From a virus, in the UHGV virus genome UHGV-2169520: a stretch of DNA of 32,664 nt, one strand, 5' to 3'. Under the pieces are notes generated by a model. It searched no databases and was not told the origin of the DNA. It was given only the letters and a program-made list of their open reading frames with translations. The position numbers and the translations under genes are program-made. Positions 1,370 through 31,695 of this stretch are shown here, in pieces (the first letter of the stretch is position 1; every line of letters begins with the position of its first letter).

Positions 1370-1575
1370 ATGAGGTTGTTCCACAGAAACGATGTTGAGA
1401 TATTTCTGCTCCAGAAAGGACAAGCTAAAAAAATAAAGTGATATTATGATATGTCAGGGATGTTCAGGCATGTCAGTGTCTTATTAATAAACTCGTTGCT
1501 GCTGTAATAACACCAAAAAAATCAAAGCATAATCTGCATGTTGTTCCTGATGACCCAATAACCACAAAAGAATAA
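1370..1575 (+). pseudogene. Decayed copy of the 71-codon ORF family (intact copy at 3197-3412)
   Basis: ATG 1370 opens MRLFHRNDVEI then frame breaks (stop after 23 codons); C-terminal homologous segment ..RDVQACQCLI..HVVPDDPITTKE present out of frame; same flanking AT-rich region and terminator as the intact copy. Confidence 0.55.
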
Positions 1576-1668
1576 AAAAAATGCCCGCTTTCCGGCGGGC
1601 AAAACAGCAATGTGAGTTGTCTGTCATTGATACTGGACACCCTTCCTGTTGTCAGGTGGAAGGCACCC
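1574..1668 (-). ncRNA. Candidate small RNA unit B3 (body class beta)
   Basis: -35 TTGAGC (1698-1703), 17-bp spacer, -10 TAGATT (1675-1680); terminator hairpin 1583-1600 plus U-run. Confidence 0.35.
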
Positions 1669-1772
1669 GTGGTTAATCTACTGTCTTTGTGCTTTTGGCT
1701 CAACCCTGAAGTTTTCATGGAAAATCAGGGCTGCTTTGTGTGCGCCAGGGAAGGCGCCTCGATGGCAGGCGC

Positions 1773-1799
1773 AAAAAAAATGCCCGTGCTTCGGCGGGC
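1773..1799 (-). terminator. Intrinsic terminator, minus strand
   Basis: Hairpin 1782-1799 (one mismatch) preceded on plus strand by A8. Confidence 0.5.
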
Positions 1800-2026
1800 A
1801 AAATAAGGAAGTACAGGTTACATGTTATTGATAAAGTAGCATTGCTCTGTCCGTCTTTAATCTAACGAGTTTTGAGTTTTTTCACAATATTGTTACCTGT
1901 CATGTTATAGATGAAACTGCAATTTCATCTATAGGTATAAATGATTTGTATTAATGTGTGTCCACTGTTTGTCTGCTTTCTGGTTTTCAGTTGACTGTGT
2001 TTCTGATGAATTCAGGAGGTTGTCTT

Positions 2027-2125
2027 ATGAGGCTGTTCCACAGAAACGATATTGAGATTGAACTGCATTTCTCCTCCGGTGAGGATAAGGTTAAATCATT
2101 GTTGATGAAAAAAACAAAGATTTAA
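2027..2125 (+). pseudogene. Truncated copy (32 codons) of the 71-codon ORF family
   Basis: Strong SD AGGAGG 8 nt before ATG 2027; first 24 codons near-identical to 3197-3268 (2 of 3 differences synonymous) then divergence and early stop. Confidence 0.5.
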
Positions 2126-2194
2126 TTTATTGATATAAAGGATTTGTATCAGCGTATGTCCACGCAGTGACCACATTTTCGAGAGGTAGAGTAA

Positions 2195-2220
2195 GCCCGC
2201 AACATTGCGGGCTTTGTCTT
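2195..2220 (+). terminator. Intrinsic terminator, plus strand
   Basis: Hairpin GCCCGCAACATTGCGGGC 2195-2212 followed by TTTGTCTT. Confidence 0.6.
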
Positions 2221-2264
2221 ATAGTCTGATCACTGTTTCAAGTCGGTGAGGACACCAAAAAGAA

Positions 2265-2298
2265 AACCCGCAGTTTTTATGCTGCGGGTTTGTTTGTT
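2265..2298. terminator. Bidirectional hairpin terminator
   Basis: AACCCGCAG..CTGCGGGTT hairpin 2265-2290 with T-rich tract after it on the plus strand and U-rich tract after it on the minus strand. Confidence 0.5.
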
Positions 2299-2332
2299 CA
2301 TGTCTGTGAGATAGGGTGCCTTATCGACCTTA

Positions 2333-2745
2333 CCCTGGCAACCGATTGACGGGGGATTGCTCCCCCGTCGCGGTTTCCTTACTTCTTACATTGTAAGAAC
2401 GCCGCAAACTCCGCTCCCCAGAAGCTCATCCGTATTTCGCACAGCGAACCGTGCAATATCCAGATGATGAGGATTGCCGTCACGCAGAACGTGATGGCCG
2501 TAAGCGATTTTTGCGACATAGCACTTGCTCCTTTTCCGGAGAGGCGCTAACCTTTCACTTGTCAAGGTAATGCGGTTAGGGCCTCGGTTAAACAGAAATG
2601 TTTTCCGGGGCCTTTCCACATCCGGCCTTCAGGTTTTCCCTCCGGCCATCAGCCGAAAGGCACCCGCGCGTAATTTAACTGTTTCTTTTTGTTGCGGCAA
2701 TATTTCAGGTGTCAGTTGGGGTGGGCTGTATCTTGTCTGATGCAT
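2333..2745. repeat. Copy 2 of the ~400-bp structured non-coding element
   Basis: Alignable with 325-724; hairpin 2348-2369 GACGGGGGA-TTGC-TCCCCCGTC; 15-bp insertion relative to copy 1. Confidence 0.6.
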
Positions 2746-2841
2746 AAAAAAATGCCCGCGCTTCGGCGGGCAAAAAACAAGACTTTTCGTTTGTATATCA
2801 TGGATAATGGACACCCTTCCTGTTGTCAGGGGGAGGTACCC
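2746..2841 (-). ncRNA. Candidate small RNA unit B4 (body class alpha)
   Basis: -35 TTGAGC (2871-2876), 17-bp spacer, -10 TAGATT (2848-2853); terminator hairpin 2754-2771 plus U-run. Confidence 0.35.
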
Positions 2842-2945
2842 GTAGCTAATCTACTCACTTTGTGCCCGCAGCTCAACCCTGAAGTTTTCATGGAAAATCA
2901 GGGCTGCTTTGTGTGCGCCAGGGAAGGCGCCTCGATGGCAGGCGC

Positions 2946-2972
2946 AAAAAAAATGCCCGCTCTCCGGCGGGC
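2946..2972 (-). terminator. Intrinsic terminator, minus strand
   Basis: Hairpin GCCCGCTCTCCGGCGGGC 2955-2972 preceded on plus strand by A8. Confidence 0.6.
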
Positions 2973-3196
2973 AAAACAATGATCTACGTCACATTATATT
3001 GATAACCGGGCATTCCTCCATGCCCATTTTTAATTTAGCCATTTTTCATTTTGTTCACAATATAGTTATCTATCATATTCATGAATGAAATTATAATTTC
3101 ATCTATAGGTATAAATGATTTGTGTTAATATGTTTCTCCTGTCTAACTGTTTTCTCATTTTTCGATACTAGTATTTCTGATATATTCAGGGGGCGT

Positions 3197-3412
3197 ATGA
3201 GATTGTTCCGAAGAAACGATATTGAGATTGAACTGCATTTCTCCTCCGGTGAGGATAAGGTTAAATCAATAAAGGTGAAACTAAGACATGCCCGGGATGT
3301 TCAGGCGTGTCAGTGTCTTATTGATGAACTCGTTGCTGCCGGAGGAACGCCAAAAAAACAAAAATATAATCTGCACGTGGTTCCTGATGACCCCATAACC
3401 ACAAAAGAATAA
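3197..3412 (+). CDS. Small hydrophilic protein (71 aa), function unknown; only intact member of a three-copy family
   Basis: ATG 3197 with G-rich SD; MRLFRRNDIEIELHFSSGEDKVKSIKVKL..; convergent with ogr; AT-rich upstream region with conserved hairpin 3008-3036. Confidence 0.6.
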   Translation: MRLFRRNDIEIELHFSSGEDKVKSIKVKLRHARDVQACQCLIDELVAAGGTPKKQKYNLHVVPDDPITTKE

Positions 3413-3505
3413 AAAAATGCCCGCTTTCCGGCGGGCAAAAAACAATTTAGGTCATATTTCATCATGGATAATTAAATACTTGCCCGTGGTTGCGGGAAAG
3501 TATCT
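3411..3505 (-). ncRNA. Candidate small RNA unit B5 (body class gamma), immediately downstream of ogr
   Basis: -35 TTGAGA (3535-3540) starts 15 bp after ogr stop; 17-bp spacer; -10 TAGATT (3512-3517); terminator hairpin 3419-3436 plus U7; also the likely terminator for ogr. Confidence 0.35.
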
Positions 3506-3554
3506 GCCGTTAATCTACTTGCCTTATGATGTCCTCTCAACCTGATTATTGTTC

Positions 3555-3806
3555 TTAAATATCAAGATTAATCTGAGTATTCCCCCTGTGAGATCCCGGA
3601 AAATCTTCCCACGGTATCCGCTCTGTACCCTGCGGCGACGGGGCGCGTTTTGATGTGAATTTGTTAAAACCCTCCAGTGTGGTAAAGCCGATCCCGCATT
3701 CGAGGTTATTGCACTGGTAGTACTTCAGGCGAACTGTGCCTGAATCATTTTCATTGCGACTGGTGCGGATACGTGCGGATGCACCGCATAGGGGACAACG
3801 GAACAT
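3555..3806 (-). CDS. ogr: Ogr/Delta-family zinc-finger late-gene activator
   Basis: MFRCPLCGASARIRTSR...YYQCNNLECG: C-x2-C...C-x4-C zinc finger matching P2 Ogr; SD AGGAGA 4 nt before ATG. Confidence 0.9.
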   Translation of the reverse strand: MFRCPLCGASARIRTSRNENDSGTVRLKYYQCNNLECGIGFTTLEGFNKFTSKRAPSPQGTERIPWEDFPGSHRGNTQINLDI

Positions 3807-3849
3807 GGCTTCTCCTTATCTGGCTGAGTGGAGATGGCTCATTTTAATT

Positions 3850-4941
3850 TTATCCGCCTGAATCTGCTATCCATTCGGGGATTTTCGCTTCCAGCTCCAG
3901 TTGTGTGGTGAAGCCGCTTTCATCTATGATGTGCTCCACCCTGGCAATAATCCAGTCCTGATTGTCCACCTCGCTTTTAAAACCTGTTACCCTGCCGTGC
4001 ATTTCGGGGTACAGGTCGGCACGACCCCGTGCCAGAGTGATGGAGAATGCCGCTGCTCCCCGCTGTAACTCCTGCCACTTTGCCGCAGCTGCACGTCGTG
4101 CGGTTTCTTCATTCTGGTAAGTCCTGCGCAGAACGTAGACGTTCCCTTCCGCGCCTTCCATGTAATCACCCTCCCGGCTGCTGCTCTTCTCCTGTTTCTG
4201 TTTCCCGGCTTCCCTGCGTCGCTTCACGTTCACTTTTTTCTTTTGCCCGAACTTCAGATCGAGCCAGTGCGCCCGGACCCCCGTATACGCATCACGGTCA
4301 GCAATGCGAAAGCGGTGACTGTCGCCGCTGCTGCGGGTAATGGCGAACGAAGGCAGGGCTCTTCCGTCCGGCCCGGTTCCGCCACCCGGCAGAATGAATA
4401 ACAGGCTGCCGTTTTTTACGGTGGCAATCGCACCCAGCATTTCAGCCATGCGGGTCAGGAAGGATATATCGCTCTCTTCGGTCTGGTCAGCGTGGTCAAT
4501 TTCGATATCCATGAGGATTTCGCTTATCTGTGTCTTCAGGCCGTAGCGGTGAGCGATGGCTGACACAACCTGTTTTACGGTCACGTCGTGCCAGGATACC
4601 TCCCGCCTCACGTTGAACTCTTCCCGAAAATCTGCGCTGCTGGCGGTGATGATCAGTTTATCTGGAGGTCCTTCCCACGCAACCTCATCAACGACGTAGG
4701 TGCCCTTGTTAACCAGTGATTCTCCTCGCCAGCCAATCATCACTCTCAGGCGTGCGCCACGTGGTGGCAACTGTAACTGCCCGTCCGTATCGTCAAGGGT
4801 GAGGGTGACGCGGTCTGCCTCAAAGGCCCGGTTATCCGTCAGGGTCAGCGTCATGAGTCGCTCTGTGAGGTTTGCCAGTGTGTTGTTGTTGATGGTGATG
4901 TCGATATCCGGTGACGGAACGGTAACTGACAGCTCTTTCAT
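3850..4941 (-). CDS. D: Tail protein D
   Basis: P2 gpD-like over full length; start set at ATG 4941 (SD AGGAGAG) rather than the ORF-track start 4977, which lacks an SD. Confidence 0.85.
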   Translation of the reverse strand: MKELSVTVPSPDIDITINNNTLANLTERLMTLTLTDNRAFEADRVTLTLDDTDGQLQLPPRGARLRVMIGWRGESLVNKGTYVVDEVAWEGPPDKLIITASSADFREEFNVRREVSWHDVTVKQVVSAIAHRYGLKTQISEILMDIEIDHADQTEESDISFLTRMAEMLGAIATVKNGSLLFILPGGGTGPDGRALPSFAITRSSGDSHRFRIADRDAYTGVRAHWLDLKFGQKKKVNVKRRREAGKQKQEKSSSREGDYMEGAEGNVYVLRRTYQNEETARRAAAAKWQELQRGAAAFSITLARGRADLYPEMHGRVTGFKSEVDNQDWIIARVEHIIDESGFTTQLELEAKIPEWIADSGG

Positions 4942-22725: not shown

Positions 22726-24477
22726 ATGATTCAGGATACATTTGTTCGCCAGCGGGCACGCCAGCTGTACTGGCAGGGTTACCCTGTTGCGGAAATTTCC
22801 CGCCTTATGGGTATCAACCAGAACACGATCCATTCGTGGAAAAAACGCGACCAGTGGGATGAGACGCCCCCGGTTCAGCGTGTCACGCAGTCCATGGATG
22901 CGCGACTCATTCAGCTCACGGAAAAACAGAATAAAACAGGCGGGGACTTTAAGGAAATTGATTTGCTGACCCGTCAGCTTAAAAAGCTGCATGACGGTCT
23001 GCCGGATGAGACGGCAACAGGAAAGAAAGGCCGGGCGAAAAAACGCAAAAATCATTTCACGCCGGAACAGATCGCGGCGCTGCGGGAAAAAATTACCGAC
23101 AGGCTGGCCGGACACCAGCGCAAATGGCTTGATGCTATCGGTGCCTGTGAGCGTGCCGGAATTACTGACAGGATGATCCTGAAATCCCGCCAGATTGGGG
23201 CGACCTGGTATTTTGCGCAGGAAGCGCTGCTGATGGCGCTGCGTGACGATGTGGCACAACCTTACCAGCGTAACCAGATTTTTTTGTCTGCGTCTCGTCG
23301 TCAGGCGCTCCAGTTTAAAAGCATTATTCAGAAGGCTGCATCTGAAGTTGATGTGGAACTGAAAGGGGGCGATAAAGTCATCCTCTCCAACGGTGCAGAG
23401 CTGCATTTTCTCGGCACTTCTGCGGCCACCGCGCAAGCGTACACAGGGAATCTGTATTTTGATGAGTTTTTCTGGACGGGGCGTTTCGCAGAGCTGCGCA
23501 AGGTGGCTGCTGCTATGGCAACGCTGGATGGTTTGCGGTGTACCTATTTTTCCACGCCATCAAGTGAAACACATGAGGCGTATGCATACTGGAACGGCGA
23601 TCACTGGAATGAAGGGCTTCGTACTCATAAACGTCAGCATTTTGATGTGAGCTGGAATGCGCTTCATAACGGCCTTATCTGTCCTGACTATATCTGGCGG
23701 CAAATTGTGACGCTGGAAGATGTGGTCAGTCAGGGATGGACGTTAACCAACATTGACAAAATCCGGCGCAATAACACTGAAGACGAGTTCCGCAATCTCT
23801 ACATGTGTGAATTTGCTCGCGAAGGGGAATCGGCATTTAACCTGAATATCCTGATTGGCTGCGGTGTTGACGGATACGACGAGTGGCCGGACTGGAAGCC
23901 GTTTGCACCGCGTCCGATGGGGAACCGCCCTGTGTGGATTGGGTACGACGCCAACGGCAGTAGCGGGAACGGTGACAGCGGGGCGGTTGTCGTGGTGGTG
24001 CCGCCAGCCGTACCGGGCGGGCGTTTTCGCACCGTGGAGACGCGGCGGGTGCAGGGGCTGGAGTTTGAGGCGCAGGCGAAGGTGATTGAAGAGTTCACCT
24101 TTCGCTATAACGTTGAGCATATCGGTATTGACGTAACCGGCGGTCACGGGGATGCGGTGTATCAGATTGTGAAGCGCTTTTTTCCGGCAGCCATTCCCTA
24201 CACCTTCACCCTGTCATCAAAGCGCACGCTGGTTCTGAAGATGCTGCAGCTCATGCGCGCCGGGCGGTGGGAGTACGACCGCAGCGAGCGCGAACTGGTG
24301 AGCGCCTTTAACGCGGTACGCAAAACAAAAACGCAGGCCGGATTTATCACCTACGAAACAGATCGCGCAAGAGGCGTAAGCCATGGCGATCTTGCATGGG
24401 CCACCATGCTGGCCGTTATCAACGAACCTGTCGGCGGTGAACATGATGCCGCCCCCTTCAGTGTTACGGAGTTCTGA
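22726..24477 (+). CDS. P: Terminase large (ATPase) subunit P
   Basis: P2 gpP-like over full length. Confidence 0.9.
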   Translation: MIQDTFVRQRARQLYWQGYPVAEISRLMGINQNTIHSWKKRDQWDETPPVQRVTQSMDARLIQLTEKQNKTGGDFKEIDLLTRQLKKLHDGLPDETATGKKGRAKKRKNHFTPEQIAALREKITDRLAGHQRKWLDAIGACERAGITDRMILKSRQIGATWYFAQEALLMALRDDVAQPYQRNQIFLSASRRQALQFKSIIQKAASEVDVELKGGDKVILSNGAELHFLGTSAATAQAYTGNLYFDEFFWTGRFAELRKVAAAMATLDGLRCTYFSTPSSETHEAYAYWNGDHWNEGLRTHKRQHFDVSWNALHNGLICPDYIWRQIVTLEDVVSQGWTLTNIDKIRRNNTEDEFRNLYMCEFAREGESAFNLNILIGCGVDGYDEWPDWKPFAPRPMGNRPVWIGYDANGSSGNGDSGAVVVVVPPAVPGGRFRTVETRRVQGLEFEAQAKVIEEFTFRYNVEHIGIDVTGGHGDAVYQIVKRFFPAAIPYTFTLSSKRTLVLKMLQLMRAGRWEYDRSERELVSAFNAVRKTKTQAGFITYETDRARGVSHGDLAWATMLAVINEPVGGEHDAAPFSVTEF

Positions 24478-25532
24478 TGAGCAGAAAAAATAAACAACGA
24501 CGTACGAACGCCCGCGCAGCGCAGGGCAGCCTTGCGGATTCCCTGCGAAGCGACCCGACACTAAGTGCCTTCACGTTTGAAGGACCTTACCGGCTGTCAG
24601 GGGCCGACCTGCTGGACAGCATGTACTGCGCCGACAACGGGCGGTGGTTTGAAACGCCCGTTGACTGGTACGGACTGGCACGGGCTGCCCGCCAGACGTC
24701 CTGGCACCAGTCGGCGCTCAGCTTCAAACGTAATGTGCTGCTGGGCTGCTATATTCCACATCCTCTGCTGTCCCGCCAGGAGTTCGCCGGGGTGGCGATG
24801 GACTGGTTTGTGTTCGGTAATGCCTGTCTTGAGCTGCGGCGCAACATGCTTGGCGAACCGCTGGCCCTGCGCCGGGCGCTGGCGAAATACATGCGACGTG
24901 GCAGCGATATGAAATCATGGTGGTATATACAGGAAGGACAGGAAGAGTACCGCTTTCGTGAGGGGACGATATGCCACCTGATGAATCCTGATATCAACCA
25001 GGAGATTTACGGGATGCCGGATTACCTGGGCGGCCTGCTGTCTGCCAGCCTGTCACATTCCGCCGATATCTTCCGCAAGCTCTACTACGATAACGGCTCA
25101 CACGCGGGCTGTATTGTCTACATCGGTGCGGCGCAGGTTGACCGTGAAAGCATGGAAAAACTGCGGGAAACACTGCAAAGCGCGCGTGGTGGCGGGGCGT
25201 TTAAAAATCTGCTCATCCACGCGGCGGGAGGTGGTAAGGATGGCGTACAGATTTTGCCGTTTCAGCAAATCACCGCAAAGGATGAGTTCATGAACGTCAA
25301 GGCTGCATCGCGTGATGATGTGCTGTCCGTGCACCGTGTACCGCCGCAGCTGATGGGGGCCATGCCGGGTGAGAAGGGGTCATTCGGGGATGTGGAGAAG
25401 GCAGCCCGTGTGTTTGCCATTAACGAACTGATGCCCGTCATGGAAGCAATGAAACACGTCAACGACTGGCTGGGCGAAGAGGTGATCCGTTTTAACCCTT
25501 ACGCACTGTTAGACACCCAGCCCATATCCTGA
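24477..25532 (+). CDS. Q: Portal protein Q
   Basis: P2 gpQ-like; start overlaps P stop. Confidence 0.9.
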   Translation: MSRKNKQRRTNARAAQGSLADSLRSDPTLSAFTFEGPYRLSGADLLDSMYCADNGRWFETPVDWYGLARAARQTSWHQSALSFKRNVLLGCYIPHPLLSRQEFAGVAMDWFVFGNACLELRRNMLGEPLALRRALAKYMRRGSDMKSWWYIQEGQEEYRFREGTICHLMNPDINQEIYGMPDYLGGLLSASLSHSADIFRKLYYDNGSHAGCIVYIGAAQVDRESMEKLRETLQSARGGGAFKNLLIHAAGGGKDGVQILPFQQITAKDEFMNVKAASRDDVLSVHRVPPQLMGAMPGEKGSFGDVEKAARVFAINELMPVMEAMKHVNDWLGEEVIRFNPYALLDTQPIS

Positions 25533-25559
25533 CGCGCTTCGCTTGTCTGCTGCTTCGCC

Positions 25560-25582
25560 GGGGCATAAAAAATTTATGCCCC
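25560..25582. terminator. Hairpin between convergent Q and the 237-codon cargo gene
   Basis: GGGGCATAAA-aaa-TTTATGCCCC, 10-bp stem; no clear U-tract on either side. Confidence 0.3.
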
Positions 25583-25598
25583 GACTCTCCAGCTCTGC

Positions 25599-26312
25599 TT
25601 AACGAAGTGCTGATGGCGCTCGCTTTTTCAGGTGATTAGCGATGTGCTTTTTCATGTGCATAACAACATCGCCCCAGGCTTCTTCGCTGGGTTTATTGAT
25701 AAATACGCGAACAGAAATATCGTCTTCCACCCGGACTCTCAGAGACACCCGTTCCGCATCTACTGAATATAATTCAAGTGCAATAACCACGCTTACCGGG
25801 TAGCTGCTGTCAGATGACTTAACCCAGGTTCGCACGGCCATGCGGAAAATATTGTCTGGTGCAGATGCGATATTGTGGACTGAAAGAGGACTAAAATCCG
25901 CCGCTGTCTTACATGGCAAGCCTGTCTCCACGTAGCGGTGCAGGTCGCCATCATCGTCTTCCCAGTACATGGATGGAAGCCCCAGCCATTCTTCATAGAA
26001 ATCAATCAGCCTTGCCGCTTCATCCCGCAAAATTTGAGCTGCCTCAGCGCGTTTTTCTTCAGCTTCACGATTGATCTGGCATAAATCATTAAAGTGGCTC
26101 ATGACATTATCCTCTTTTGAGTTGATGCCTGCCGCTATTCTGACTTTGCCCGGGTTCTCCTGCAAGCTGGTTATTCCTTCAGATAATTTCACAACATCTC
26201 CAACCTTGTAGCCATCATCGCCGGGCGGATGCTTACGCAACCCCGCAACTCTGACGACATATTCTCGCTGCCTCAGTGCGATTTTGACGGCCTTATCTTT
26301 CACCCCCATCAA
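25599..26312 (-). CDS. Hypothetical cargo protein (237 aa, or 167 aa from ATG 26102), no recognisable domain
   Basis: Long ORF; internal ATG 26102 has strong SD AAGAGGA, first ATG has none; own transcription unit. Confidence 0.6.
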   Translation of the reverse strand: MMGVKDKAVKIALRQREYVVRVAGLRKHPPGDDGYKVGDVVKLSEGITSLQENPGKVRIAAGINSKEDNVMSHFNDLCQINREAEEKRAEAAQILRDEAARLIDFYEEWLGLPSMYWEDDDGDLHRYVETGLPCKTAADFSPLSVHNIASAPDNIFRMAVRTWVKSSDSSYPVSVVIALELYSVDAERVSLRVRVEDDISVRVFINKPSEEAWGDVVMHMKKHIANHLKKRAPSALR

Positions 26313-26528
26313 ATCAAGCTTTTACGTCTTTTTTACGCTCAGCGTGAGAAATACAGCCATTCTGTTGTGTCGCTGCAACATCGTTCAGGGAATGCTATTT
26401 ACCCCCTGAAACGCGGGCTGTTCCCCCGTCACCTGCGCGCAGAAAAAGGCCTTTTTTCGTGCACGCACGGATCCCCGACGGATCCAGACGCCACACGGGC
26501 CGGAAGGGCAAAAAGTCGTTCAAAAAAA

Positions 26529-26555
26529 TTGTGCAAATTTGTGCACTATTGTGCA
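26529..26555. repeat. Three direct TTGTGCA repeats at exact 10-bp spacing (candidate regulator binding sites)
   Basis: TTGTGCA at 26529, 26539, 26549, between the operon terminator and the 237-codon gene. Confidence 0.4.
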
Positions 26556-26564
26556 TTGAAATAA

Positions 26565-26587
26565 ACGCCCTGGAGGAGGGCGTTTTG
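26565..26587. terminator. Bidirectional intrinsic terminator ending the A-linked cargo operon
   Basis: ACGCCCT-GGAGG-AGGGCGT hairpin then TTTG on plus strand; U-rich tract after it on minus strand. Confidence 0.6.
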
Positions 26588-26592
26588 CTCAT

Positions 26593-26994
26593 CTATTTAT
26601 AGCCTTGCCCCTTACTGGCCAGCGCCCTGATGGCAGGGCGTGCCAACACCATATTTTGGCAATGATGAATTGCCCGGCAAAATTCATCTCTACCCATTGG
26701 ATGCTCAACTGGCAATGTAAAATACAGGTTCCATGCATCGCCTAAAAGTTGGGCTATCTTTTGTTCTTCAGATGTCAGCAAGCGGTACTCCCCATCCTTG
26801 ATGTAGTCACTTGTGCCATCGACCTGCTGTTCTGCAATGTGGAAAGCACCTATTGGTTTTGCTTCCAGCGATGCCAAAGCAATCCGTGCCAGTTTTTCCG
26901 CTTCTTCGGCTGGCAGTACAACGTTGCTACCAGGTCCGTATGTTTCGCGCCACTGCCTGATTGTCAGTAGTCGCTCTTTGGTTATAGTGGTCAT
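26593..26994 (-). CDS. Hypothetical cargo protein (133 aa)
   Basis: SD GAGGA 7 nt before ATG; ATGA overlap with upstream gene stop. Confidence 0.65.
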   Translation of the reverse strand: MTTITKERLLTIRQWRETYGPGSNVVLPAEEAEKLARIALASLEAKPIGAFHIAEQQVDGTSDYIKDGEYRLLTSEEQKIAQLLGDAWNLYFTLPVEHPMGRDEFCRAIHHCQNMVLARPAIRALASKGQGYK

Positions 26995-27200
26995 TTGTTA
27001 ATCCTCAAAACTTTATGCCCGGGCGCAAAAGCACGAGTTTTGTCTTTGCTTATTCGCCAGCCATCCTTACGCGCCTCTTTTGCACAGCCAGTCCATGACG
27101 TACCGATATATTCACCGAAGTCTGGCGTTTGATATTTACCATTTGTACACTGGCGACAATCACAATAGAGATGCATGGTGTAACTTGCGGCAATAGCCAT
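26991..27200 (-). CDS. Hypothetical Cys-cluster protein (69 aa), possible metal-binding
   Basis: SD AGGAGA 5 nt before ATG; ..HLYCDCRQC.. and ..TGCAKE.. Confidence 0.6.
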   Translation of the reverse strand: MAIAASYTMHLYCDCRQCTNGKYQTPDFGEYIGTSWTGCAKEARKDGWRISKDKTRAFAPGHKVLRINK

Positions 27201-27201
27201 A

Positions 27202-27516
27202 TCAGTCTCCTTTGATGCCAGTGTTTACAACCTGACAAGCCTCTTTGAGCACCCAGTCAACAGCGTCTTGCCATGCTCCGGTTTCGACTGGCGGATTCTC
27301 ACGCTTTACCAGTTCATAGAAACGTACTGCTCTAACCAGTCCATCTGACGGTTTTGCCTGTAGTGCAGCCTGAGCTATGCGGTATACCTGGAGCATACAG
27401 GCGTCGTTGATATCCATTCCGAATGGAATATCTGATGACTGAGATTCCACATCTTCCAGCCTGGCAATTTCTTTACGTAAGAAGCCTTTCAGTTCCTGCT
27501 TCTGTTTCCTGTTCAT
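27202..27516 (-). CDS. Hypothetical cargo protein (104 aa)
   Basis: ATG 27516 with SD AAGGA at 7 nt; the ORF-track start is a TTG five codons upstream. Confidence 0.6.
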   Translation of the reverse strand: MNRKQKQELKGFLRKEIARLEDVESQSSDIPFGMDINDACMLQVYRIAQAALQAKPSDGLVRAVRFYELVKRENPPVETGAWQDAVDWVLKEACQVVNTGIKGD

Positions 27517-27527
27517 ATATTTTTCCT

Positions 27528-27722
27528 TCAAAGTTCGGTTCGCTGACAGGGTTTCTCTTTACGGCAGACAATGACGCTGCCTTTGCTCGAGTCGGTGATT
27601 GTTACCGTGCCGTCATCACACTGGACAATGACAACGGTGTTGCTCTTTTTCGCTACGCAGTTCGGCGTGGCTGATTGTGCGAATGGCGCGAAAAACAGCA
27701 GAAAAAGTAATATTCTGCTCAC
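27528..27722 (-). CDS. Small secreted 4-Cys protein (64 aa; predicted signal peptide)
   Basis: GTG start 27722 with SD GGGAGG at 8 nt; VSRILLFLLFFAPFAQS-ATPNC.. signal-like leader; Cys-containing mature part of ~47 aa. Confidence 0.55.
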   Translation of the reverse strand: MSRILLFLLFFAPFAQSATPNCVAKKSNTVVIVQCDDGTVTITDSSKGSVIVCRKEKPCQRTEL

Positions 27723-28150
27723 TGTTGTTTCCTCCCGTTCTGTGCTGGTCTGGCGAATGAATTGCGTTGTGGTGAAAAGACCATTCGCGCCAGCGCGGCC
27801 TTGTGATTGACTGTGTTCAGTGTTCTGGCCAGTCCGCCGTTGTGCCTGCGTGTCCGCTCTTCGTGATATCTCTGCATGATTTTCCCGGCAGGCGTGCACG
27901 GCTCCGGTTCCTCCGGCGAACGGCGCGGACGAATGACGACAGTCCAGCTATGGCTCTCGCTGCCCGGCCGCCTGTTGAGTATGTCGGCGATGGTGGTCTC
28001 CGTGGTGCGATCGGGGCTGACTATCGTGATTTCCAGCTCGTCGCCCGGTTGTGGCCTTGTGGCAGGCCTGAACAGTGTCAGCACCGGCATACGCTGGCGC
28101 ATGATGGCCTCAAACTGTGGGCGCTGCATGGTGCAGCAAAATCGCGTCAT
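27719..28150 (-). CDS. Hypothetical basic cargo protein (143 aa), coupled to gene A
   Basis: ATGA overlap with A stop (28147-28150); SD GGAGG; Arg-rich C-terminus. Confidence 0.6.
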   Translation of the reverse strand: MTRFCCTMQRPQFEAIMRQRMPVLTLFRPATRPQPGDELEITIVSPDRTTETTIADILNRRPGSESHSWTVVIRPRRSPEEPEPCTPAGKIMQRYHEERTRRHNGGLARTLNTVNHKAALARMVFSPQRNSFARPAQNGRKQQ

Positions 28151-30657
28151 GCTCCCGCCTCCACTGGCTGCTCTGTGATGATGTGACGGGCTGACTCATC
28201 CCAGTACGCTGTTCCCCCGTTATCCAGACGCACACGGGCACCGTTACGCACGGAGATGATGGCCGCGTCAGGCAACTGCACACCCAGCGCATCAAGTTCG
28301 CGGGCGATTTGCGTGTCCGTCGCGGTATCCGCAGGCACGACAATCCCCACCCTTACAGGGGTGTCAGATGCCGGTGTGGTGTCGTTTTGTCCGGTTTTTG
28401 CGCCCGACGGCTGATTTTTAATCTGATTACGCAGTTTTCTCCGATCGCCCCTGCTTAACGTATTCAGCCAGCTTTCCAGGTTCTCTTCGGGAAGCGTCAG
28501 TCGTCCGGGGTCCTGCCTGTTTTCTGGTCCGTGATTGTCTGTTTTTTCATCCCGGGGACAGTTATTGCCACGAGTCCAAGGGGCGACGGGGTCGCCCTGA
28601 AGGTCAAAACCCTCGCCCGTGCGGTTGTCTGGTGTTGTTTCTTTTTTAACCAGTTTCCACTCGTCCGGATGGGTGCATATGGTGTACCGCTCTCCGAGCG
28701 ACGGGGCGCAGATTCCGTAGATACGTTGAGGGAACTCACCGTAGTCGTTGGCTTCGTCTGCGGTTTCGTATGCGGTGCGGACCAGATACTGGTTGCGCGG
28801 AATGAGCACACCACCCTGTTTCATGATGTAGGTGGCAAAACATCCCACATCTGCGGCAGCCATAATGGCGTCAATATCGTCATGATCGAGGTGCTTCGGT
28901 GATGCCGGGTTGCGCTCCATCTGGCTTGCAAGGCGGCGGAGTTCACGCCATACCTGGCGGGGCGGAATGCCGAAAAACTGGAACTGACGGATGCGGTGAA
29001 GGCTTGCCCAGGCAATGGCGTTCTCCACGGTTTCCGCCATGGTTTTCCCGGATTCCTCATCAACGTAAGGTTTTCCGGTTTTCGGATCATTGTTGTGGAA
29101 AGCGCTGGCGTCCAGGTTCTTACCGATATAGGTTGCGATATAGCTTGCCGGTGTGCCTTTTTCCGGGTCTATCTTCTCGCATTTAAAGCGCGGTGAAATA
29201 TCGTCCCCCAGTTCGTGGCGATCTGATTTAATTGCTGCTTCGCGCATAATTTCGATGATGCGCTCTGCGTTCTCCGGGGAAGTGAATACCAGCATATGCC
29301 AGTGTGGCGTGCCGTCATGGTGTGGCTCAGCGGTTCGCACGCCGTACCAGCCCAGCCCCTCTTTTTTTATTTTTTTTCTTACGGCTGCGAAGAAGTCGTA
29401 AACCAGATAATCACTGGCATCTCGTACTGTGGCACCGTTGTATTTCGGGTTCAGGCTGCCGTTCTCGTTCACGCTGTGAAAGCGGGAAGGGGTGGTTACT
29501 GTGATGAAGAATGCGACGTCAGCCCGTAATTCGGCCACCATCTCCATCCCTCTGACGCAGACCATCATTTCATTGCGGCGGTTGCGTGGATTACCCAGGC
29601 CAGCCCAGTACACGTCCTCCAGACTCAGGCGCTCGCCGTCTTCGTTTTCAATATCCCAGCTTTTGAGAAAGTCACGGGTGCGCTGGCGCTTCTCGCGGAA
29701 CTCCAGTAGTGACTCATGGCTGATATAGGGGGATTGTTTACGTGACACTCTGCCGGCGGCGCGCAGTAACTCCTCCCGCCAGAGATCGGCGACGTGGCGT
29801 AACTGGTTGTTCCACCAGGTCGCGCAGGTGATGCGCAGTACCGCACCCGGAACCCGTTCAGGGTCCGGCGGTGTGCGTCGGTTGTGCCTGATTTCGAGTT
29901 CCGGCCAGTATGGCGGGACCACGCCCAGAATTAAGGCTGTGCGTGCCACCTTCTGGTAGGCCAGCAGCCAGATAACCGGGCTGTCATTATCCTTGCCTGT
30001 CCGTTCAAGAACTTCATCACATATGCGTTCAAATTCTGCGGCGAATGCCTGGGCTGTCAGTGTGGCGATGCGCTGGATTTCGTCACGGGTGAGTTGCGGC
30101 AGTGTGAGCAGTTCTTCAAGGCGATGGCGCACGACGGTGGTTTTGAATGCCGGCGTTGCAAAGCGGTCGTTAACCCTTTCAATACGTTTCAGGCGCGCAC
30201 GCAGTCCACGGCGAACGAAATTATCGGCCACGTATGCGCTGTTGTTTTTTACACCTTCACTGCGGGCACTTTGCTGTTTCCGGTTCAGTCGTGCCAGATC
30301 ACGGATCAACACACTGGCAAGAAACGAGGGCAGGGTGCGAAGTTCGGCTATCGCCTCCGATACCGCCGTTGGCGGATTTTCGCGTCTGTGTCGTGCCAGC
30401 TTATCCAGCCTTATCTGCCGCTCTTCGTCCCGGTGAAGGTGTGAATTAATTTGCTTACCTTTGTCCGTGGTTGTCAGGAAGGCCACGGTTTCTTCATCCA
30501 GCCGGGCCTCAGTGCGAATGTCTTCGGTGAGGTAGTCACGGATTGCCCGTTGTAATGCGGTTGGCTTCTGCGGTAATGCTCTGCCGAATGTCTCAGGATC
30601 AATAACCGGCAGCGGGGCGTTCCACGGGTACGCCAGGTGCGTGTGGTGATGGCTCAT
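28147..30657 (-). CDS. A: Replication initiation endonuclease A
   Basis: ..YGVRTAEPHHDGTPHWHMLVF.., ..WASLHRIRQFQFFGIP.., ..YGICAP.. blocks as in P2 gpA. Confidence 0.9.
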   Translation of the reverse strand: MSHHHTHLAYPWNAPLPVIDPETFGRALPQKPTALQRAIRDYLTEDIRTEARLDEETVAFLTTTDKGKQINSHLHRDEERQIRLDKLARHRRENPPTAVSEAIAELRTLPSFLASVLIRDLARLNRKQQSARSEGVKNNSAYVADNFVRRGLRARLKRIERVNDRFATPAFKTTVVRHRLEELLTLPQLTRDEIQRIATLTAQAFAAEFERICDEVLERTGKDNDSPVIWLLAYQKVARTALILGVVPPYWPELEIRHNRRTPPDPERVPGAVLRITCATWWNNQLRHVADLWREELLRAAGRVSRKQSPYISHESLLEFREKRQRTRDFLKSWDIENEDGERLSLEDVYWAGLGNPRNRRNEMMVCVRGMEMVAELRADVAFFITVTTPSRFHSVNENGSLNPKYNGATVRDASDYLVYDFFAAVRKKIKKEGLGWYGVRTAEPHHDGTPHWHMLVFTSPENAERIIEIMREAAIKSDRHELGDDISPRFKCEKIDPEKGTPASYIATYIGKNLDASAFHNNDPKTGKPYVDEESGKTMAETVENAIAWASLHRIRQFQFFGIPPRQVWRELRRLASQMERNPASPKHLDHDDIDAIMAAADVGCFATYIMKQGGVLIPRNQYLVRTAYETADEANDYGEFPQRIYGICAPSLGERYTICTHPDEWKLVKKETTPDNRTGEGFDLQGDPVAPWTRGNNCPRDEKTDNHGPENRQDPGRLTLPEENLESWLNTLSRGDRRKLRNQIKNQPSGAKTGQNDTTPASDTPVRVGIVVPADTATDTQIARELDALGVQLPDAAIISVRNGARVRLDNGGTAYWDESARHIITEQPVEAGA

Positions 30658-30662
30658 TCCGC

Positions 30663-31076
30663 TTACTCCCCTGCTGTTGCCTTCTCAAATGCAGCCCGGT
30701 ACAGCACAAGAAGGCGCTGGTATTCAGCGATAAAGTCTTCTGCTGTTTTAATCCCTTTCACGACCACGCTGTGGGTGGTCATTTCCAGAACGAGCACCAT
30801 TTCTGACGATGACCAGCTGATAACGCTGCTGTCGCACCCGTTGATGTGGAACAGGCCCAGCACCATGCTGTGGTTCTGGTCTCTGACATCCACGCGGTAA
30901 CGGTCATCAACGGTGAAGGAAAAATTCCCGTATGTGGTGGCGCTGCTGGCGGCCTGTTTACAGGCGCGGCGGTAATAGTCATGCAGGTCATTGAGACGGG
31001 AAGCGAGGCGTGGATCCACCGCCCACATCCAGTTAAAAAAATCCTGAATATCTGAAAGTCCCTTAACGCTCTTCAT
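30663..31076 (-). CDS. Hypothetical early-operon protein (137 aa)
   Basis: SD GGAGG 5 nt before ATG; stop 5 nt before A start. Confidence 0.6.
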   Translation of the reverse strand: MKSVKGLSDIQDFFNWMWAVDPRLASRLNDLHDYYRRACKQAASSATTYGNFSFTVDDRYRVDVRDQNHSMVLGLFHINGCDSSVISWSSSEMVLVLEMTTHSVVVKGIKTAEDFIAEYQRLLVLYRAAFEKATAGE

Positions 31077-31144
31077 GAGAACCTCCGGAAACGGACGTGC
31101 GGAAGCCTCCCGCGTACGGGGGCGGGATGGCTCCGGGATGTTGA

Positions 31145-31372
31145 TTAGTGGTGGTAGTGCTGGTTAATGAGGTCCTGCAGCTTGCGCAGGTCATCCGCCA
31201 GGTAGCTGAATACAGCGGCGGAATACATGTTTGACAGTGCGTGGCTGCGCTCATGCAGCATATTGATGTGCATGATATGCGCGACGCGGAATGCGCGGGA
31301 AAGTCTGCGGTTGATTTCAGTCTGGATGTGACGACGCGCAGCGTATGCGCGCTGTTGTTTGCGGTTTGCCAT
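31145..31372 (-). CDS. Hypothetical small basic early protein (75 aa)
   Basis: SD AAGAGG upstream; first gene after the control region. Confidence 0.5.
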   Translation of the reverse strand: MANRKQQRAYAARRHIQTEINRRLSRAFRVAHIMHINMLHERSHALSNMYSAAVFSYLADDLRKLQDLINQHYHH

Positions 31373-31419
31373 GGTGTTTGGCCTCTTCGTTTGTGAGTTT
31401 TTGGATACTCACCATCCAG

Positions 31420-31459
31420 AGGTTGCAATTCTGGGTGGCGAGACGTACAGGGTTGCAAC
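31420..31459. promoter_or_regulatory. Palindromic GGTTGCAA motifs upstream of the early operon (candidate operators)
   Basis: CCAGA-GGTTGCAAT-TCTGG at 31415-31433 and perfect palindrome GGTTGCAACC at 31450-31459, 30 bp apart; third GGTTGCAA at 31597-31604. Confidence 0.4.
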
Positions 31460-31553
31460 CACCGGCAAACGAAGAAACCGGCCCGACCGAAGTCGGCCCC
31501 GTACGCCCCACCATAATTCTGGTGCGAAAAAGACGTGGCGATACGGTACGCAC

Positions 31554-31573
31554 AAAAAAACCGCTGGCGCGGT
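31554..31573 (-). terminator. Intrinsic terminator, minus strand, downstream of the HTH-protein gene
   Basis: Hairpin ACCGC-TGGC-GCGGT (31560-31573) preceded on plus strand by A7. Confidence 0.55.
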
Positions 31574-31695
31574 TGTGCGCTTCGTTTGTCAGCGGGGGTT
31601 GCAATCCCGGCACCCGTTTTATGAGGTGCAGCGGAAATGTAACCTGACTGATTGCGGCATGGCAAGCGGTTTTTTTGTGTGTGCATAGTGGTTAC

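Follow-up and report, generated by a model that had tools for sequence, protein, structure and literature searches.

The stretch of DNA analysed here, referred to as the window, comprises the 32,664 nucleotides (nt) of UHGV virus genome UHGV-2169520 which, judging by its sequence, is a P2-like, P88-related prophage of Escherichia coli. Between its replication gene A and the cos site lie five short minus-strand genes, g1 to g5, which a first-pass annotation had described as a single five-gene cargo operon at the position where P2 carries orf91, tin and old. The position was confirmed, the interval being the one between gpA and cos/gpQ, but a single cargo was not borne out: g1 is conserved within the lineage and coupled to A, and g2-g5 alone make up the variable part. 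The reading we favour, with a probability of roughly 0.6, is that of a resident gene, g1, followed by a mosaic of early-lytic accessory genes, g2-g5, at the distal end of the A operon.

A chain of five genes under purifying selection

The list of open reading frames (ORFs) of the window holds all five genes with the codon counts originally given for them (Table 1), and the junctions could be read from the sequence as they had been described: ATGA at 28150-28147, GTGA at 27722-27719, TGA-t-ATG at 27204-27198 and ATGA at 26994-26991. Consecutive genes overlap by 4 nt or are separated by gaps of 1 and 11 nt, the longer one between g2 and g3, and each has its own Shine-Dalgarno sequence (GGAGG, GGGAGGA, AAGGA, AAGGAG or GAGGA) 8-10 nt upstream of the start. 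At the end of the chain stands a hairpin resembling an intrinsic terminator, whose 51-nt context has a folding energy of -15.2 kcal/mol (z = -3.5 versus shuffled sequences). It had been placed at 26565-26587 and called bidirectional; the hairpin is indeed present, 2 nt away from that position, but the T-tract is moderate and the bidirectionality weak.

Table 1. Positions of the g1-g5 chain, its terminator and the adjoining features in the window
Feature	Position	Strand	Details
g1	27719-28150	-	143 aa
g2	27528-27722	-	64 aa, GTG start
g3	27202-27516	-	104 aa, ATG start
g4	26991-27200	-	69 aa
g5	26593-26994	-	133 aa
Intrinsic-terminator-like hairpin	26563-26585	-	closes the chain; 9-bp stem, 5-nt loop, then UUUAUUUC
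Variable mosaic insert	26556-27718		g2-g5 and terminator
Gene A, replication endonuclease	28147-30657	-	836-aa ORF; annotated product 'replication endonuclease'; stop overlaps the g1 start
g6	25599-26309	-	236 aa (as annotated); hotspot ORF between cos and the portal gene; 49% GC
cos-proximal flank	26511-26555		98% identity to the end of the linear P884B11 record; three TTGTGCA repeats

The interval from A to the portal gene (25500-28300) is found with 99.9-100% identity in 22 of 5,426 complete E. coli genomes. In the matching genomes, the Prokaryotic Genome Annotation Pipeline (PGAP), also the source of the A product name and the g6 length in Table 1, annotates this interval as part of a P2-family prophage with terminase, portal and replication endonuclease. 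It calls g1-g4 as coding sequences and g5 for its first 45 codons only, as a pseudogene fragment. The exact sequences of all five proteins occur on 360 to more than 1000 public contigs, where all members are labelled hypothetical. Comparison with homologues yielded ratios of non-synonymous to synonymous substitutions (dN/dS) of 0.09-0.40 across the genes. Taken one by one, dN/dS or pN/pS was 0.09-0.40 for g1, 0.24-0.30 for the mature part of g2, 0.14-0.27 for g3, 0.14 for g4, 0.23 for the N-terminal module of g5 and 0.19, from 5 substitutions only, for its C-terminal module. All five genes are under purifying selection which, in combination with their recurrence on public contigs and the PGAP calls, indicates that they are real genes and not a chance pattern.

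The first-pass annotation had seen no recognisable motif in any of the five proteins. At the sequence level this agrees with the outcome of the Pfam, NCBIfam and PADLOC searches, but it overlooked a signal peptide in g2 and an ASCH-like predicted fold in g1. For six proteins, g1-g5 and the neighbouring g6, there was no Pfam or NCBIfam match above noise and the sole PADLOC match, to g3, was weak (E = 0.016); PDB sequence searches with g1, g3, g4, g5 and g6 returned nothing. PHROGs placed the proteins in families of 'unknown function' only, apart from a 'DNA ligase' label (PHROG 13916) on the C-terminal module of g5, which we hold to be unreliable as that family is merely 67 aa long. A search of the main texts of the literature for four RefSeq protein accessions found no mention of them. 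The block had also been described as AT-richer than the flanking phage genes; this is true of g2-g5, with 45-50% GC, but not of g1, which at 60% GC (69% at third codon positions) resembles A and the portal gene, the whole window having 55%.

g1 as a resident partner of gene A

In every relative fetched that belongs to the same A lineage (L010-L014, L018 and L019), a homologue of g1 starts 4 nt before the A stop codon, and the identities of g1 and A keep in step, with 73% versus 72% in L010 and 65% versus 73% in L013. The g1 family is confined to E. coli, where it forms 17 clusters at 65-99% identity. The predicted model of the protein consists of an ASCH/PUA-like beta-barrel (residues 1-75) and then a long basic helix (residues 87-124).

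P2 has a gene of this kind in the same place. In the P2 record (L015), A (1535-3820) is directly followed by orf91 (3817-4146) with the same 4-nt ATGA overlap, and Orf91 matches DUF3850 at 1e-16 and ASCH at 2e-10 in Pfam. Based on the ATGA coupling to A and on the ASCH/PUA-like model, g1 is the positional and, as far as the model goes, the fold counterpart of P2 Orf91. A relation to P2 orf91, tin or old, which the first-pass annotation had named as something that would speak against its proposal, was therefore found in part, for g1 and by fold and position. Unlike Orf91, g1 carries an additional long basic C-terminal helix and belongs to a family found in E. coli only.

Several observations weigh against this assignment. 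g1 has no Pfam match at E<=1, hence neither DUF3850 nor ASCH; its comparison with Orf91 yielded nothing in BLASTP and a probability of 0.2% in hhalign; and the GxKxxExR-type motif of Orf91 is missing from g1 when the two sequences are read directly. With no detectable sequence similarity, the relation is one of modelled fold and of position only. By analogy with the ASCH family, g1 might be a nucleic-acid-binding accessory of replication or of the early programme, and the ATGA overlap would couple its translation to that of A.

Modular make-up of g2-g5

Sequence comparison portrays g2-g5 as a patchwork in which the closest relatives of each gene are located in different places. g2 encodes a signal peptide (MSRILLFLLFFAPFAQS/A) and a 47-aa mature part with four cysteines and a QCDDGTV motif. 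Searching all proteins with HMMER, we identified six small relatives of 66-90 aa with a hydrophobic N-terminal leader, cysteines and an invariant QCDDGTV; none of these small relatives has a Pfam domain, and the long repetitive proteins among the matches were treated as spurious. The corresponding PHROG families (20764/11462) are labelled 'function unknown'. One homologue, with 72% identity, follows parMR in a P88-like prophage of strain UMNF18, and a second, with 67% identity, precedes genes for SSB, a ClpX-zinc-finger protein and Ea22. The UMNF18 copy (L017 5004-5198, minus strand) is unannotated, PGAP calling a 64-aa ORF on the opposite strand, and keeps both the leader and the four cysteines.

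g3 is composed of a short N-module (residues 1-56, ending AQAALQAKP) and an Ea22-type C-terminal domain (about residues 57-104). The protein is 93% identical to P88 gp20 and 89% identical to the PhiR44_2 homologue, and its residues 32-104 match the C-terminal region of a 242-aa PF13935 Ead_Ea22 protein with 67% identity (E = 3e-29). The PF13935 model itself matches neither g3 nor g5, but it does match neighbouring-slot proteins of relatives. Of 5426 E. coli genomes, 737 contain the DNA of the g3 C-module and 94 contain the complete gene; the N-module is reused with other C-modules (P0197 and L018). In E. coli GF60 an IS21-family element (istA/istB, L024 1862-4169) lies near the 5' end of g3 in a copy of the locus that is otherwise identical. 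The ending ...IKG(E/D)-stop is common to many genes of this module pool, among them g3, P88 gp20, Ea22 gp47 of Stx2 phage 86, the 163-aa protein of PhiR44_2 and some variants of g4. The DNA of this gene end (AAAGGAGAnTGA, window 27202-27220; also at the gene ends of L002-L004) also serves the following gene as its Shine-Dalgarno sequence, and it is likely to be a recombination linker between modules.

g4 is a CxCxxC miniprotein with an invariant YCDCxxC motif, for which no structural match was found. A Shiga toxin (Stx) phage has an ORF with 93% identity to it in its ea22/exo-xis region, and 12% of complete E. coli genomes contain g4.

g5 is an in-frame chimera of a 'DUF551-family' N-module (residues 1-69) and a 62-aa module (residues ~72-133; the PHROG 13916 module mentioned above). 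The N-module, taken as residues 1-72, is shared at 92-93% identity by more than 3,000 proteins of prophages, most of which carry the name 'DUF551 domain-containing'. In these proteins it continues with WPIDNGTIEVYAAPP and then with at least 10 different tails; in g5 it is cut after ...DGE and fused in frame to the 62-residue module. PF04448 (DUF551) has no match in g5, which has only the N-module in common with the DUF551 proteins. The C-module is found in 113 of 5426 genomes and has 97% nt identity to the C-terminal part of P0197, which begins with the g3 N-module and is thus a g3N-g5C hybrid; its gene is located downstream of parMR in a P88-like element. Furthermore, g4 and the first 48 codons of g5 show 93-96% nt identity to Stx-converting lambdoid phages, whose early-left region contains homologues of the two genes, flanked by the ea22 homologue on one side and the integrase end on the other, with the ATGA junction kept.

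It could be argued that some of the block, and g5 above all, is a functionless leftover of recombination that is decaying, since PGAP flags g5 as an incomplete pseudogene, its N-module falls short of the canonical form, which continues ...DGEWPIDNG..., and one genome has an IS21 element inside g3. However, g5 can be read without interruption over its 133 codons, 360 contigs carry the exact protein, the C-module is nearly identical to the differently fused copy in P0197 and has the low pN/pS given above, again from those 5 substitutions only, and the other genes have dN/dS values of 0.09-0.30, all of which makes decay very improbable. In particular, g5 as a frameshifted pseudogene was rejected, because both modules are found in other in-frame combinations and the frame is intact.

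Content of the slot in related prophages

The slot had been proposed to be variable among P2-like prophages and the comparison of genomes supports this, showing four contents after A and g1 in this A lineage and at least six after A and parMR in P88-like phages. After g1, L010 has a 163-aa Ead_Ea22 protein, L013 and L014 have a MarR-like gene, TumE and HVO_A0114, L018 has a 55-aa gene, a 75-aa gene, DUF7446 and an Ea22 fragment, and L019 has three small ORFs. In P88-like phages, parM-parR follows A in all cases and differing genes come after it. The edges of the insert in the window can be placed accordingly: on the left the end of P884B11 matches 26511-26555 and stops sharply before 26556, 7 bp before the hairpin, and on the right the edge is the g1 stop, beyond which the relatives diverge. 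P88-like (Xuanwuvirus) prophages have homologues of g2 and g3, as well as the g3N-g5C hybrid, in the same slot and orientation; unlike them, the window prophage lacks parMR, has g1 instead and has an A protein that is only 51% identical. The pair of TumE (PF20126) and HVO_A0114 (PF25212) in L013 (7191-7939) and L014 (1909-2657), with the MarR-like gene before it, may be a toxin-antitoxin or defence-type cassette, unlike the content of the window.

In the description of the gpA-gpQ hotspot by Rousset et al. 2022 (PMC9122126), the locus occurs 18,150 times and takes 1,650 different arrangements; a partition system is present in about a quarter of these. Table S5A of that study lists the present protein set, for example in NZ_CP033635, as six proteins that are all hypothetical (WP_000196517, WP_001080487, WP_072668117, WP_024211219, WP_000951718 and WP_000086827). 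Both the type of locus and this exact arrangement are already on record and not new; what is new here is the split into a resident and a mosaic part, the link of the insert to the lambdoid Ea22/DUF551 pool and the domain anatomy of g2, g3 and g5. The interval shares with the described hotspot its location next to cos and its high variability, and g2-g5 together with g6 are hotspot cargo in that sense; g1 is not. Characterised members of the hotspot (old, tin, retrons and others) are defence systems, whereas here we find no defence signatures and an extension of the A operon.

Transcription of the chain

A sigma-70-like consensus scan found no site on the minus strand within 26593-28150, although a weak promoter could escape such a scan. 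As the chain leaves no intergenic room and contains no promoter-like site, we infer that g1-g5 are co-transcribed with A. Co-transcription had been suggested by the first-pass annotation and is still the most economical reading of the overlaps, the result of the promoter scan and the early-left homologues in Stx phages. In P2, tin and old are on the opposite strand and have their own mapped transcript start (L015).

This arrangement bears on the possibility that g2-g5 are a prophage-expressed exclusion or defence cassette of the tin/old kind, with g2 as a periplasmic superinfection-exclusion factor. Many arrangements at the gpA-gpQ hotspot are defence systems, a 2026 study of P2 and P4 elements reports that 15-32% of unknown P2-element proteins score as antiviral with machine-learning predictors, and the signal peptide of g2 predicts export. 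However, PADLOC gave no match beyond the one at E = 0.016, none of the proteins has an enzymatic or NTPase domain, the genes are chained on the strand of A without the separate transcript start and opposite orientation of P2 tin/old, and the g4 and g5 homologues of Stx phages are part of a lytic early operon. Taken together, we judge a cassette of this type to be improbable.

Proposed role of the g2-g5 genes

The reading of a resident g1 with mosaic early-lytic accessory genes builds on the gene structure, the selection, the conservation pattern, the mosaic origin and the modelled fold of g1, which we regard as settled, and it draws its functional part from lambdoid phages. Expression of exo-xis genes begins very early and moves the balance between lysis and lysogeny, and Ea22 proteins are mosaics of a constant N-terminal part and swapped C-terminal domains, for which ligand binding has been proposed. 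The chain resembles the exo-xis/ead-Ea22 region in the high nt identity of g4 and the g5 N-module to it (93-96%), in the g3 C-module, which is an Ea22 C-terminal domain, in the combination of a constant N-terminal part with a swapped C-terminal domain, and in its location at the distal end of an early operon. It differs from it in that g3 and g5 match neither the PF13935 nor the DUF551 model, in that the studied genes are not present and in that the host element is a P2-like myovirus.

In the reading we favour, g2-g5 form a 1.16-kb AT-richer insert put together through recombination of small gene modules, which come from a pool that circulates between the P88-/P2-like slot and the early-left ea22/exo-xis region in lambdoid (Stx) phages. 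Transcription of g1-g5 would proceed from A and stop at the hairpin before the cos flank, with the genes translated by coupling or re-initiation. Given co-transcription with A, the time of action of g2-g5 would be early lytic growth or the period after induction. g2 would be at work in the periplasm, g4 would be a small cysteine-cluster protein, and g3 and g5 would each combine a constant N-module with an exchangeable C-terminal domain that could bind ligands, as proposed for Ea22. By analogy with the exo-xis genes, they might tune host physiology or the lysis-lysogeny outcome, rather than acting as a defence expressed by the prophage.

Some points speak against this proposal. The analogy to exo-xis comes from a common gene pool and context and not from tested orthologues, and the genes studied there (ea22, orf60a, orf61, orf63, orf73 and ea8.5) do not include any of g2-g5. 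A weak internal promoter or read-through in the lysogen may be compatible with the consensus scan, and the antiviral scores of unknown P2-element proteins cited above point in another direction.

The same features could also be seen as those of early counter-defence proteins, directed against restriction or abortive infection and encoded by all or some of g2-g5. With 64-133 aa the proteins are small, the gene content is hypervariable, the genes stand at the end of an early operon, they come from a gene pool common with lambdoid early-left accessory regions, and a constant-N/variable-C architecture would suit adaptors with changing targets. On the other hand, no similarity to a characterised anti-defence protein was seen in the general PHROGs, Pfam and PDB searches, and the sole studied relatives, the Ea22 proteins, are tied to the lysogeny decision and not to counter-defence. 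We consider counter-defence possible but unlikely, and prophage-expressed defence less likely than that. A more doubtful elaboration is that proteins of the g3/g5 type are polymorphic adaptor-effectors, with an N-module that docks onto a common partner from phage or host and shuffled target-binding C-modules, which, along with g2 and g4, would form an early-expressed counter-defence or host-takeover cassette that is mobile between lambdoid and P2-like phages.

Neighbouring genes and other features of the window

The gene order in the window is portal (24477-25532, plus strand), g6, cos, g5, g4, g3, g2, g1 and A. The late genes have ~88-90% nt identity to P88-like phages (Xuanwuvirus, Peduoviridae). 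The A protein is 72% identical to A of L010-L013, 51% to that of P88-like phages and 32-33% to those of P2 and 186, and A proper has ~71% nt identity to the P88-like gene, except for its last ~125 codons. The difference in identity between A and the late genes suggests that the early and late regions have different histories. The final ~125 codons of A (28147-28522, minus strand) have no nt match in any P88-like phage.

On the far side of cos, g6 is covered by PHROG 5091 for residues 70-236 only; a 52% homologue stands at the same place in L013 and L014, and searches of Pfam, PADLOC and PDB yielded nothing for g6. P88-like phages conserve its first ~44 codons, either as a tiny ORF or as DNA of the cos flank, and the true start of g6 may therefore be Met70, to judge from this comparison. 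As the P2 cos sequence gave no match when searched for, cos itself was placed according to where the linear P884B11 record ends. TTGTGCA has just three copies in the whole window, at 26529, 26539 and 26549, an exact 10-bp spacing, and this trio may be a candidate terminase or cos-binding array.

Upstream of the A operon and of a gene for a 75-aa 'derepression protein' (31145-31372), and adjoining them, there are a C4 antisense RNA (Rfam, 79 bits; 31431-31518, minus strand) and an isrK Hfq-binding RNA (62 bits; 31554-31629, minus strand). The combination of C4, isrK and the derepression gene suggests an RNA-based immunity module of the P1/P4 style in a P2-like prophage. A 207-aa ORF at 31063-31686, which overlaps the two RNAs, is probably spurious.

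Implications for the gpA-gpQ hotspot

Our analysis sharpens the boundary of the P2-type gpA-gpQ hotspot, as the gene coupled to A (Orf91 in P2, g1 here) is a conserved partner with an ASCH fold, predicted in the case of g1, and should be left out of the cargo. Under the reading of a resident g1 with mosaic accessory genes, part of the content of P88-related hotspots would consist of early-operon modules from the ea22/exo-xis pool and not of stand-alone defence systems, a distinction that matters when such loci are mined for immune systems. Nothing in these findings overturns current views; g4 and the C-module of g3, the latter in 14% of complete E. coli genomes and g4 at the 12% given above, are common and would be reasonable targets for experiments.

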